Below are positions 18,596 through 38,049 of a stretch of 64,000 bases of DNA, one piece after another. Where the stretch lies: assembly GCF_055900595.2 (NCBI RefSeq), contig NZ_CM148325.1, one strand, 5' to 3'. How positions within the stretch are numbered: the first letter of the stretch is position 1; every line of letters begins with the position of its first letter. The position numbers were made by a program, and so were the translations under genes. The notes under the pieces are model-generated. The model searched no databases. It saw only the letters and a list, made by a program, of their open reading frames with translations, and was not told where the DNA came from.

Positions 18596-19925
18596 ACTGA
18601 TGAATCCCCTAATGATTTTTATCAAAATCATTAAGTTAAGGTAGATACACATCTTGTCATATGATCAAATGGTTTCGCCAAAAATCAATAATCAGACAAC
18701 AAAATGTGCGAACTCGATATTTTACACGACTCTCTTTACCAATTCTGCCCCGAATTACACTTAAAACGACTCAACAGCTTAACGTTGGCTTGCCACGCCT
18801 TACTTGACTGTAAAACTCTCACTCTTACCGAACTTGGCCGTAACCTGCCAACCAAAGCGAGAACAAAACATAACATCAAACGAATCGACCGATTGTTAGG
18901 TAATCGTCACCTCCACAAAGAGCGACTCGCTGTATACCGTTGGCATGCTAGCTTTATCTGTTCGGGCAATACGATGCCCATTGTACTTGTTGACTGGTCT
19001 GATATCCGTGAGCAAAAACGGCTTATGGTATTGCGAGCTTCAGTCGCACTACACGGTCGTTCTGTTACTCTTTATGAGAAAGCGTTCCCGCTTTCAGAGC
19101 AATGTTCAAAGAAAGCTCATGACCAATTTCTAGCCGACCTTGCGAGCATTCTACCGAGTAACACCACACCGCTCATTGTCAGTGATGCTGGCTTTAAAGT
19201 GCCATGGTATAAATCCGTTGAGAAGCTGGGTTGGTACTGGTTAAGTCGAGTAAGAGGAAAAGTACAATATGCAGACCTAGGAGCGGAAAACTGGAAACCT
19301 ATCAGCAACTTACATGATATGTCATCTAGTCACTCAAAGACTTTAGGCTATAAGAGGCTGACTAAAAGCAATCCAATCTCATGCCAAATTCTATTGTATA
19401 AATCTCGCTCTAAAGGCCGAAAAAATCAGCGCTCGACACGGACTCATTGTCACCACCCGTCACCTAAAATCTACTCAGCGTCGGCAAAGGAGCCATGGAT
19501 TCTAGCAACTAACTTACCTGTTGAAATTCGAACACCCAAACAACTTGTTAATATCTATTCGAAGCGAATGCAGATTGAAGAAACCTTCCGAGACTTGAAA
19601 AGTCCTGCCTACGGACTAGGCCTACGCCATAGCCGAACGAGCAGCTCAGAGCGTTTTGATATCATGCTGCTAATCGCCCTGATGCTTCAACTAACATGTT
19701 GGCTTGCGGGCGTTCATGCTCAGAAACAAGGTTGGGACAAGCACTTCCAGGCTAACACAGTCAGAAATCGAAACGTACTCTCAACAGTTCGCTTAGGCAT
19801 GGAAGTTTTGCGGCATTCTGGCTACACAATAACAAGGGAAGACTCACTCGTGGCTGCAACCCTGCTTACTCAAAATCTATTCACACATGGTTACGTTTTG
19901 GGGAAATTATGAGGGGATCTCTCAG
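18596..19925 (+). mobile_element. IS10 (IS4 family), copy 1
   Basis: Outside end CTGATGAATCCCCTAATGATTTT at 18596; inside end ...GGGGATCTCTCAG at 19925; flanked by 9-bp direct repeat CACCCAGTA (18587-18595 and 19926-19934). Confidence 0.95.
18704..19912 (+). CDS. IS10 transposase
   Basis: 402 aa; matches the Tn10/IS10 transposase sequence from memory. Confidence 0.95.
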   Translation: MCELDILHDSLYQFCPELHLKRLNSLTLACHALLDCKTLTLTELGRNLPTKARTKHNIKRIDRLLGNRHLHKERLAVYRWHASFICSGNTMPIVLVDWSDIREQKRLMVLRASVALHGRSVTLYEKAFPLSEQCSKKAHDQFLADLASILPSNTTPLIVSDAGFKVPWYKSVEKLGWYWLSRVRGKVQYADLGAENWKPISNLHDMSSSHSKTLGYKRLTKSNPISCQILLYKSRSKGRKNQRSTRTHCHHPSPKIYSASAKEPWILATNLPVEIRTPKQLVNIYSKRMQIEETFRDLKSPAYGLGLRHSRTSSSERFDIMLLIALMLQLTCWLAGVHAQKQGWDKHFQANTVRNRNVLSTVRLGMEVLRHSGYTITREDSLVAATLLTQNLFTHGYVLGKL

Positions 19926-21005
19926 CACCCAGTATGTATGGAAGTCTGAAGATGTTGAGAATGTCGGTATGATACTATATACACATATTTTACTAAGTAT
20001 TTTTACTAAGCATTTCAGTAAGTGTTATACACGTATTTTCTACTAAGTGTTTTACCAGACATACACGTGTTTTCATAAACAGCCCTATAAGTGTTTTCAT
20101 TAAGCATTGCTGTACACATTGCTTTGTCTGAAACACATCCAGTTTAGTAAATCTTTACGTTAGCTAAAATCAGTTTAAAGCTGCTGTAAAACCTTTCTGT
20201 TTAAGCAATCAATCTGCTATTCGATTTTACTGATGTTGCGTTTAACCTTTTCTGAGATTTCGAGTTTCGACGTTAGCATGAGAAAAGTATCTTTACGCTA
20301 AATCAACCCGAACTTTCCTGAAGTAATCTGACGTTTTTTTCGATGTGCTTACGACGATTCTGTTAAACGACTTTCTGGATGTTTTGATAACAATCAGATT
20401 GAGGCATTAACGATTCCTGACGTTTTCTTTTCCGTGTAAGGTCATTCTTTTTGTCATGAGGTTTCTTCTTGCATTGCGAAAGTGTGATGAACGGTTTTGG
20501 TGTTTTTGATTCAGATAAGGTTTACGTTATCGATGGTTAACCGTTTTTATGGTGCGTAGTGAAACGTAACTTTTTCAGGATGAGAAAATCGATTCTGATG
20601 TTGGTGATTTTTGTTCTTGTGGCGGGGTTTATCTGTAAACAGGTTTTAAACGTGTCATTCACATCCGTGATTGAGTTGTGTGATTAAGCTGTAGGTTTTG
20701 GGGTTGTTGTTGATTTGCATTACCAGGAAGCGTTCTGGTTGCGTTTCTGGTGTTTTGTTCGAATGTTCTGTGGATCCTTTTCCCTTCTGACTTTTCTCGT
20801 TGTCCATGTCGTTTTTAAATCCATTCGCTGTTCTTGAGTGTTTTTACCCTGCGTGTAGAATTATCTTTTCGTTCCGGGATGGTTTGTTCCGTTTCAATCA
20901 CTCTTAATCAGAGAGTTGTAGCATTGCTCAATGCCGGATGCCGTAAAGTTTTACCGCGGTGATTAATGATGTGAAGTCAATCCAAATCAACGGAGATCTC
21001 TCATC

Positions 21006-36111: not shown

Positions 36112-37440
36112 CTGAGAGATCCCCTCATAATTTCCCCAAAACGTAACCATGTGTGAATAGATTTTGAGTAAGCAGGGTTGCAGCCACGAGTGAGTCTTCC
36201 CTTGTTATTGTGTAGCCAGAATGCCGCAAAACTTCCATGCCTAAGCGAACTGTTGAGAGTACGTTTCGATTTCTGACTGTGTTAGCCTGGAAGTGCTTGT
36301 CCCAACCTTGTTTCTGAGCATGAACGCCCGCAAGCCAACATGTTAGTTGAAGCATCAGGGCGATTAGCAGCATGATATCAAAACGCTCTGAGCTGCTCGT
36401 TCGGCTATGGCGTAGGCCTAGTCCGTAGGCAGGACTTTTCAAGTCTCGGAAGGTTTCTTCAATCTGCATTCGCTTCGAATAGATATTAACAAGTTGTTTG
36501 GGTGTTCGAATTTCAACAGGTAAGTTAGTTGCTAGAATCCATGGCTCCTTTGCCGACGCTGAGTAGATTTTAGGTGACGGGTGGTGACAATGAGTCCGTG
36601 TCGAGCGCTGATTTTTTCGGCCTTTAGAGCGAGATTTATACAATAGAATTTGGCATGAGATTGGATTGCTTTTAGTCAGCCTCTTATAGCCTAAAGTCTT
36701 TGAGTGACTAGATGACATATCATGTAAGTTGCTGATAGGTTTCCAGTTTTCCGCTCCTAGGTCTGCATATTGTACTTTTCCTCTTACTCGACTTAACCAG
36801 TACCAACCCAGCTTCTCAACGGATTTATACCATGGCACTTTAAAGCCAGCATCACTGACAATGAGCGGTGTGGTGTTACTCGGTAGAATGCTCGCAAGGT
36901 CGGCTAGAAATTGGTCATGAGCTTTCTTTGAACATTGCTCTGAAAGCGGGAACGCTTTCTCATAAAGAGTAACAGAACGACCGTGTAGTGCGACTGAAGC
37001 TCGCAATACCATAAGCCGTTTTTGCTCACGGATATCAGACCAGTCAACAAGTACAATGGGCATCGTATTGCCCGAACAGATAAAGCTAGCATGCCAACGG
37101 TATACAGCGAGTCGCTCTTTGTGGAGGTGACGATTACCTAACAATCGGTCGATTCGTTTGATGTTATGTTTTGTTCTCGCTTTGGTTGGCAGGTTACGGC
37201 CAAGTTCGGTAAGAGTGAGAGTTTTACAGTCAAGTAAGGCGTGGCAAGCCAACGTTAAGCTGTTGAGTCGTTTTAAGTGTAATTCGGGGCAGAATTGGTA
37301 AAGAGAGTCGTGTAAAATATCGAGTTCGCACATTTTGTTGTCTGATTATTGATTTTTGGCGAAACCATTTGATCATATGACAAGATGTGTATCCACCTTA
37401 ACTTAATGATTTTTACCAAAATCATTAGGGGATTCATCAG
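36112..37440 (-). mobile_element. IS10 (IS4 family), copy 2, inserted in iucB
   Basis: 1329 bp; inside end at 36112 and outside end at 37440; flanked by 9-bp direct repeat TGCAGAGCG (36103-36111 and 37441-37449). Confidence 0.95.
36125..37333 (-). CDS. IS10 transposase
   Basis: 402 aa, same protein sequence as the copy at 18704-19912. Confidence 0.95.
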   Translation of the reverse strand: MCELDILHDSLYQFCPELHLKRLNSLTLACHALLDCKTLTLTELGRNLPTKARTKHNIKRIDRLLGNRHLHKERLAVYRWHASFICSGNTMPIVLVDWSDIREQKRLMVLRASVALHGRSVTLYEKAFPLSEQCSKKAHDQFLADLASILPSNTTPLIVSDAGFKVPWYKSVEKLGWYWLSRVRGKVQYADLGAENWKPISNLHDMSSSHSKTLGYKRLTKSNPISCQILLYKSRSKGRKNQRSTRTHCHHPSPKIYSASAKEPWILATNLPVEIRTPKQLVNIYSKRMQIEETFRDLKSPAYGLGLRHSRTSSSERFDIMLLIALMLQLTCWLAGVHAQKQGWDKHFQANTVRNRNVLSTVRLGMEVLRHSGYTITREDSLVAATLLTQNLFTHGYVLGKL

Positions 37441-38049
37441 TGCAGAGCGTGAGATTTATTTCCCGCAGCGCCCCCCCCGTCCGCAGGGTGAAGTTTATCG
37501 TCGTTACGATCCACGCATTCGCAGGATGCTGAGTTTCCGCATTGCCGATCCCGTTTCTGATGCAGAACGTTTCACTCGCTGGATGAACGATCCGCGCGTT
37601 GAGTATTTCTGGGAGCAAAGTGGCTCACTGGAGGTACAGATCGCCTATCTGGAACGCCAGCTCACCAGTAAACATGCATTCCCGCTGATTGGTTGTTTCG
37701 ACGATCGGCCGTTCAGTTATTTCGAAATCTACTGGGCGGCGGAAGACCGCATTGGTCGCCACTATTCGTGGCAGCCCTTTGACCGTGGCCTGCATCTGCT
37801 GGTTGGTGAACAGCAATGGCGCGGAGCCCACTATGTGCAAAGCTGGCTGCGCGGGGTGACACATTACCTGCTGCTGAATGAGCCACGTACGCAGCGCACA
37901 GTACTGGAGCCACGCACCGATAACCAGCGCCTGTTCCGCCATCTTGAGCCTGCGGGATACCGGACAATTAAAGAGTTCGACTTCCCACATAAACGCTCGC
38001 GCATGGTGATGGCGGATCGTCATCACTTCTTCACGGAGGTCGGTCTGTA

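Follow-up and report, generated by a model that had tools for sequence, protein, structure and literature searches.

The window analyzed here, 64,000 nucleotides of an Escherichia coli chromosome (contig NZ_CM148325.1 of assembly GCF_055900595.2), carries two inverted copies of the insertion sequence (IS) IS10 on either side of 16.2 kb of a genomic island that includes the aerobactin locus. These copies very probably inserted independently of each other, and their arrival together as a composite transposon is refuted, as judged from the flanking duplications and from the empty sites of a related island. In the explanation that we favor, and as a whole hold with high confidence, two separate cut-and-paste transpositions would have entered a resident aerobactin and sit island adjoining ynjB, each making its own 9-bp duplication through a staggered cut. 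Copy 1, an IS10-Left allele, would have inserted between genes, upstream of one of the inovirus-Gp2 family, and copy 2, an IS10-Left element with an IS10-Right outer end that already circulates in E. coli, would have entered iucB after codon 116, with target preference accounting for the positions of both.

A repeat search finds a single inverted pair in the 17- to 39-kb region, about 1.35 kb long and 99% complementary, and a scripted comparison of the termini gives the limits of the two elements (Table 1). Both have the attributes of the IS10 family, including a length of exactly 1329 bp, both IS10 termini, a single 402-amino-acid DDE transposase gene starting at position 108, an RNA-OUT gene near the outside end, and a consensus-fitting 9-bp target duplication; PF01609 (DDE_Tnp_1) is recorded for the equivalent transposase gene in a public contig considered below (L009). 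The original prediction that each copy has a duplication of its own, CACCCAGTA around copy 1 and TGCAGAGCG around copy 2, is borne out, with the repeats lying directly at the termini. The probability of an exact 9-bp repeat at both ends of an element is about 4^-9 per element, and a chance origin of the duplications is thus excluded. The span first given for the pair, 18596 to 37449, begins with the last base of a left duplication and finishes with the last base of a right duplication; the IS limits themselves are 18597 and 37440. The transposases had also been described as identical, and they are, in both length and sequence. The two copies differ at exactly four bases, at positions 24, 25, 27, and 47 from the outside end.

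The empty sites are provided by E. coli DG341-1 (locus L001), in which the island has the same order and orientation at 99.8 to 100% identity and IS10 is absent from both positions. A single CACCCAGTA is present at L001 8001 to 8009, iucB is intact with a single TGCAGAGCG, and the 9-bp overlap of the matches at each junction corresponds to the single copy of the target. Identity over the four same-strand matches listed in Table 1 is 99.8 to 99.99%. Independent insertion had been proposed from the duplication pattern, and this empty-site check agrees with it, both sites being empty and the island collinear. Because of these empty sites and the collinearity, the 16.2 kb was resident, in its present orientation, before either IS10 arrived. 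The segment is found at ≥80% coverage in about 25 E. coli genomes. For a 22-kb query including both IS copies, the best coverage among 5,426 complete E. coli genomes is 88%, indicating that both IS copies are missing from the matching genomes, and neither insertion is present in any of the 5,426 genomes searched. Among these genomes, both insertions are thus private to the source strain. The duplications and empty sites together imply past mobility of both copies.

Table 1. Coordinates of the two IS10 copies, their duplications and genes, the disrupted iuc operon, and collinear matches to E. coli DG341-1 (L001)
Feature	Window position	Strand	Description
IS10 copy 1	18597-19925	+	1329 bp; outside end CTGATGAATCCCC... 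at left
IS10 copy 2	36112-37440	-	1329 bp; inside end CTGAGAGATCCCC... at left, outside end at right
Left duplication of copy 1	18588-18596		CACCCAGTA; abuts terminus directly
Right duplication of copy 1	19926-19934		CACCCAGTA; abuts terminus directly
Left duplication of copy 2	36103-36111		TGCAGAGCG; iucB codons 114-116; abuts terminus
Right duplication of copy 2	37441-37449		TGCAGAGCG; abuts terminus
Transposase gene, copy 1	18704-19912	+	402 amino acids; IS10-Left type (I266, S381, T389, V398)
Transposase gene, copy 2	36125-37333	-	402 amino acids; product identical to that of copy 1
RNA-OUT antisense RNA, copy 1	18642-18711	-	Rfam RF00240, 97.3 bits (gathering score 41); leftwards out of the element
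RNA-OUT antisense RNA, copy 2	37326-37395	+	RF00240, 97.3 bits; rightwards out of the element, toward 'iucB-iucC-iucD-iutA
Resident island DNA between copies	19935-36102		Collinear with DG341-1, which has no IS10 here
Truncated iucB	35765-36115	+	Codons 1-116, then TGA from the IS10 inside end (CTGA...)
Fusion open reading frame	37385-38050	+	221 amino acids; starts in the IS10 outside end; 19 IS residues + IucB 114-315 (3' part of iucB)
iucC, iucD, iutA	38050-43349	+	Separated by copy 2 from the promoter upstream of iucA
Match to DG341-1	12659-18596	same as L001	L001 2072-8009
Match to DG341-1	19926-24415	same as L001	L001 8001-12490
Match to DG341-1	27605-36117	same as L001	L001 15612-24123
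Match to DG341-1	37441-45449	same as L001	L001 24110-32118

An 18.8-kb Tn10-like composite that arrived whole would account for the geometry of the pair, in which the inverted copies have their outside ends outward at 18597 and 37440, but we give this possibility practically no weight. The two outer flanks, CACCCAGTA and TGCAGAGCG, do not match each other as a shared outer duplication would, and each IS has a matched duplication of its own, so that repeats are also found inside the pair. The would-be cargo is not absent from the empty site either, as the 16.2 kb is collinear and 99.8% identical in DG341-1 and present in about 25 other E. coli genomes, all of them without IS10 here. Tn10 of plasmid R100, taken as a control, shows the pattern expected of a composite, in that CGCTCTGCC is duplicated at the outermost ends only, the inner flanks being unrelated. 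The statement that the pair is not a Tn10-like composite is therefore right as to history but not as to architecture, since the outward-facing outside ends reproduce the arrangement of Tn10 exactly.

Misplacement of the IS10 copies during repeat resolution deserves consideration, because IS copies are classic contig breakpoints and most public contigs bearing the iucB junction stop inside the IS. Such an artefact is nevertheless extremely improbable here, given that both copies are complete with perfect matched duplications, that their flanks rejoin exactly to the empty-site sequence, and that the four differing positions show the copies to have been resolved as distinct sequences.

By its architecture the pair is a potential new composite. 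The region from 18597 to 37440 could in principle transpose as an 18.8-kb unit from the outside ends, although transposition of Tn10-type units becomes rarer with length and the two ends of each individual IS10 are much closer together. The 1329-bp inverted repeats, which are 99.7% identical, could also serve as a substrate for homologous inversion of the 16.2 kb between 19926 and 36111. Neither a net inversion nor movement as a unit is seen in the window sequence, as indicated by the matched duplications and by the collinearity with DG341-1.

Alleles were typed against the IS10-Left and IS10-Right sequences extracted from Tn10 of R100 (NC_002134.1), which differ from each other at 15 diagnostic positions (24, 25, 27, 47, 83, 107, 410, 425, 903, 1249, 1268, 1271, 1272, 1281, and 1300). 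Copy 1 is IS10-Left of R100 (36132 to 37460) with no differences over 1329 bases. Copy 2 is Right type at positions 24, 25, 27, and 47 and Left type at the other 11, from 83 to 1300 (RRRR-L11), and differs from R100 IS10-Left at four positions (1325/1329 identical); it is, by this typing, an IS10-Left/IS10-Right recombinant. In both alleles a hairpin with a 10-bp stem has positions 24 to 27 as its 4-nucleotide loop, which reads TATC in copy 1 (18620 to 18623) and GGTA in copy 2 (37414 to 37417). The original prediction had noted this loop difference and its 12-mers are correct; it overlooked the fourth difference, at position 47, which is the reported 3' end of RNA-OUT (PMC5006887). The loop difference is the known polymorphism between IS10-Left and IS10-Right and no private mutation. 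We note that GGTA, when reverse complemented, becomes TACC and then differs from TATC by a single base; inversion of the loop by template switching was considered as a source of the difference and rejected, as it offers only a weak parsimony argument (two events versus three substitutions).

The Left and Right transposases differ by four residues (I266V, S381L, T389A, and V398A, Left given first), and both copies in the window code for the Left type. The transposase of IS10-Left is described as weak or inactive (PMC11148124), and PMC11481808 reports that IS10-Left inserted de novo in NEB5alpha. Because both copies carry the Left-type gene and such a de novo insertion is on record, the Left-type element seems to be mobile in practice, either alone or with help. 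Two copies with an often-called-inactive transposase that have nonetheless transposed thus add to the evidence for mobile Left-type and mosaic alleles in natural E. coli.

Both target sites fit what is reported for IS10, for which a consensus NGCTNAGCN and a relaxed form, NPuCNNNGPyN, are quoted in PMC4574204. The copy 1 9-mer agrees at four of four relaxed positions, and the copy 2 9-mer at four of four relaxed and five of six strict positions. Both sites have also been used elsewhere. At the homologue of the copy 1 site in E. coli 23CRST013 (L002 11992 to 13338), where the island is 87 to 93% identical in the region, an IS10 is present in the opposite orientation; apart from a private substitution at position 203, it is Right type throughout. 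When this IS10 is removed and the sequences are aligned, the duplication around it, CACTCAGTC, proves homologous to CACCCAGTA in the window.

For the iucB site, a truncated IucB of 116 amino acids is on record in 35 blocks of a public assembly collection (draft and Logan assemblies), and details were taken from the ten contigs shown among them (L009 to L018). These contigs carry another iuc allele, with 53 to 54 single-nucleotide polymorphisms (SNPs) in 3,409 bp relative to the window (98.4% identity), and where the flank suffices, the context is of plasmid type (sitABCD-crcB-shiF-iuc-iutA-IS1-sopAB). Such IncF/ColV-type aerobactin loci (e.g., L009, from GCA_034721775.1) thus share with the window the target TGCAGAGCG and the truncated IucB, and differ from it in iuc allele, plasmid context, IS10 alleles, and, in some cases, orientation. 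In 8 of the 10 an IS10 end directly follows TGCAGAGCG. The inside end comes first with Right-type bases in L009, which has the whole IS, and in L016, with Left-type bases in L014, and with too little IS sequence for typing in L012; the outside end comes first in L010 and L015 (Right type) and in L011 and L017 (Left type). The remaining two, L013 and L018, end near the iucB site. Since both orientations occur on one iuc allele and the window has the chromosomal allele, the iucB 9-mer has been hit by IS10 at least three times independently. The iucB::IS10 junction is not found in the 5,426 complete E. coli genomes in either orientation, nor in PLSDB plasmids, which were searched for the inside-end-first orientation, and the recurrence is thus drawn from draft and Logan assemblies only. 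The event appears to be recurrent but rare or short-lived, and a literature search returned nothing specific on iucB or aerobactin together with IS10. Because other strains show separate IS10 insertions at both 9-mers, involving different orientations and different IS10 alleles, both are, on this comparative evidence, preferred IS10 sites. Codons 114 to 116 of iucB are therefore a repeatedly hit target, which is relevant to the interpretation of broken iuc operons in draft assemblies.

The occupied plasmid-type loci raise the alternative that iucB::IS10 came into the chromosome through homologous recombination with a plasmid-borne iuc operon already carrying it, as the same site is occupied there and in some cases in the same orientation (L009, L014, and L016). 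We consider this highly unlikely. At every distinguishing position, 53 of them upstream and 72 downstream, the window has the chromosomal allele, and the closest of these SNPs are only 219 bp (left) and 477 bp (right) from copy 2. The flanks match DG341-1 at 100% and 99.99% identity, and no conversion tract is visible in the window. Moreover, the fully sequenced plasmid copy (L009) is Right type throughout and not hybrid, and the occupation of the site in both orientations shows that it is hit repeatedly in any case. Direct transposition into the chromosomal iucB remains the favored account.

IucB is the N6-hydroxylysine acetyltransferase of the aerobactin pathway, and the intact protein has 315 amino acids with a GNAT domain at residues 149 to 294. 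Because the iucB frame ends after codon 116, ahead of the acetyltransferase domain, aerobactin synthesis is predicted to be lost. Both IS10 ends start with CTGA, so the same stop codon is created in iucB by either orientation of the element. Downstream, a 221-amino-acid open reading frame equivalent to the fusion frame is called in L009, with a PF13523 hit; a search for the fusion sequence of the window itself returned no record. The source strain would thus score positive for aerobactin genes in a virulence screen and yet is a predicted nonproducer.

Expression of iucC, iucD, and iutA would depend entirely on read-through transcription that starts at promoters within IS10. The pOUT/RNA-OUT unit of copy 2, its orientation fixed by the Rfam RNA-OUT match, faces 'iucB-iucC-iucD-iutA; a simple promoter scan did not detect pOUT, and a simple scan between RNA-OUT of copy 2 and 'iucB revealed no terminator-like site. 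Transcription out of IS10 has been documented (Simons et al. 1983, cited in PMC4574204 and PMC11481808), which makes some iron-independent expression of iutA plausible. It is conceivable, although we think it quite improbable, that the recurrent iucB hot spot acts as a contingency switch yielding siderophore "cheaters" that do not produce aerobactin but keep iutA, possibly free of Fur through the IS10 outward promoters, and that the IS10 pair is a first step to a new Tn10-like composite with the adhesin gene, shiF, and iucA. If this were true, nonproducing cheaters would arise by target-specific transposition.

The hybrid allele of copy 2 is not restricted to this strain. E. coli 55989 and a further genome contain exact matches, and dozens of genomes have copies one to three substitutions away. 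In 55989 the element is solo, lies between dkgB and yafC (NC_011748.1, 230607 to 231935), and has a separate duplication, GATTAAGCC; it matches copy 2 at 100% identity, RRRR-L11 mosaic included, at another locus and another target. In three strains (L004, L006, and L007), other Left/Right mosaics form the left IS10 of a chromosomal Tn10, and a mosaic IS10 is present at the same site in a fourth (L005), with no Tn10 genes after it; the IS10 copy is at 2501 to 3829 in each. The patterns across these four loci are RRRRR-L10, RRRRRR-L9, RRRLLLRR-L7, and RRRRLLRR-L7. We note that in the chromosomal Tn10s inserted in an inovirus-Gp2-type gene, the left arm often combines an outside end of Right type with a body of Left type. 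Because the mosaics vary in breakpoint and an identical copy is present in 55989, Left/Right recombination is frequent and the RRRR-L11 hybrid is a circulating allele. Copy 2 probably inserted as such a preexisting hybrid.

Several points weigh against this account of two insertions. Copy 2 may first have been a pure IS10-Right that was then gene converted in place by copy 1, 16 kb away, across positions 83 to 1300. This would explain why copy 2 is Right type at positions 24 to 47 only and does not differ from copy 1 between position 83 and the inside end, and variable-breakpoint mosaics are common where both alleles coexist, as in the left IS10 of chromosomal Tn10s. We find it unlikely, as the tract would have to extend to position 1300, 29 bp from the inside end, and the existence of the same hybrid as a solo element in 55989 and in one other genome, with dozens of near copies, means that no extra event is needed. 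The source of both IS10 alleles, for example a Tn10 elsewhere in the genome, lies outside the window, and, given the description of the Left transposase as weak or inactive, the copies may have moved either by themselves or with help in trans. Inversion isomers present in the population would not be revealed by one assembly, and the loss of aerobactin and the pOUT-driven expression of iucC to iutA are consequences that we infer.

Both elements can be placed among known relatives. IS10-Left of Tn10 has the same transposase (WP_001352368.1 type), RNA-OUT, termini, and 9-bp duplication as both copies. It forms the left arm of Tn10, whereas the elements here are solo with their own duplications and there are no tet or jem genes between them. 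IS10-Right of Tn10 (R100 43950 to 45278; ISVsa5 family in the NCBI annotation) is of the same family and length with the same ends, and copy 2 shares its alleles at positions 24, 25, 27, and 47; it has 15 differences from copy 1 and 11 from copy 2. Tn10 in R100 spans 9,147 bp (36132 to 45278), in contrast to the 18.8 kb of the pair here, which has no shared outer duplication, and the likeness to Tn10 lies in the inverted IS10 copies with outside ends outward, the cargo here being resident island DNA. The pair represents ordinary independent IS10 insertions of known alleles at preferred sites, which is already known biology and not a new transposon. Its general significance is small, as a textbook case of how duplications and empty sites separate independent insertions from composite movement, and the added value is a modest one, lying in the typing of the Left/Right alleles and in the finding that both targets are used recurrently.

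The chromosomal genes gdhA to ynjB occupy positions 52 to about 7661 of the window, and the genomic island extends from about 7662 to the window end. Gene names were taken from the annotation of the near-identical island in DG341-1 (99.8% identity). The island begins with CP4-like genes (YeeU/CbtA toxin-antitoxin, an antirestriction gene, and a DUF932 gene), followed by the inovirus-Gp2-family gene, decayed IS copies, a YadA-like adhesin gene, a shiF-like MFS transporter gene, iucABCD-iutA, and sitABCD. Between the two copies (19935 to 36102) lie inovirus-Gp2-family, helix-turn-helix regulator, YagK/YfjJ-domain, decayed ProQ/FinO, IS1, IS256, and ISL3 genes, and then genes for the YadA-like adhesin (with 99-bp repeats), a sigma-factor-like helix-turn-helix protein, the MFS transporter, iucA, and the 5' part of iucB.

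Identity to DG341-1 shifts sharply at about position 7661, near the 5' end of ynjB, from about 94% in the gdhA-ynjB flank to 99.8 to 100% in the island. The flank likewise shows only about 94% identity to most E. coli, and a host in Escherichia other than E. coli was therefore considered; it was rejected because the core gdhA-ynjB allele is matched at 99.9 to 100% by 8 of the 5,426 complete E. coli genomes, with the others at ≤98.2%, and is thus a rare E. coli allele. An inspected relative with the same core allele, E200086, is without the island and has ynjB and ynjA contiguous. The identity switch, the rare core allele, and this island-less relative together suggest that the island was recently imported by recombination. 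In a scan of species-representative genomes for exact 26-mers, the only return was one contig (L021 7290 to 7315), which matches a 26-mer of the window gdhA and belongs to a metagenome-assembled genome with the label Akkermansia sp.; megablast shows no further similarity of this contig to the window, and the match is probably irrelevant.

Copy 1 is located in a gap of about 1.7 kb that is unannotated in DG341-1, between a hypothetical gene and the Gp2-family gene, and its RNA-OUT faces the hypothetical gene (17182 to 18057, - strand). To its right, upstream of the Gp2-family gene, the stretch from 19960 to 20060 is AT rich with several ACTAAGT/TACTAAG-like repeats and is possibly a candidate regulatory or binding-site array. 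An IS3-family element of about 1.26 kb with a 3- to 4-bp duplication is present at 11402 to 12658 (- strand) and absent from the otherwise identical DG341-1 island; it appears to be another strain-specific IS gain. The iucD gene (39789 to 41066; L001 26458 to 27791) is annotated as frameshifted in DG341-1 and 23CRST013; in the window it is a 425-amino-acid open reading frame ending 82 bp before iutA, in a stretch 99.99% identical to DG341-1. The YadA-like adhesin gene (open reading frame 26691 to 28385) has 99-bp tandem repeats at 27388 to 27901, one unit more than in DG341-1, which by comparison of the two sequences looks to be repeat-number variation in a surface protein.

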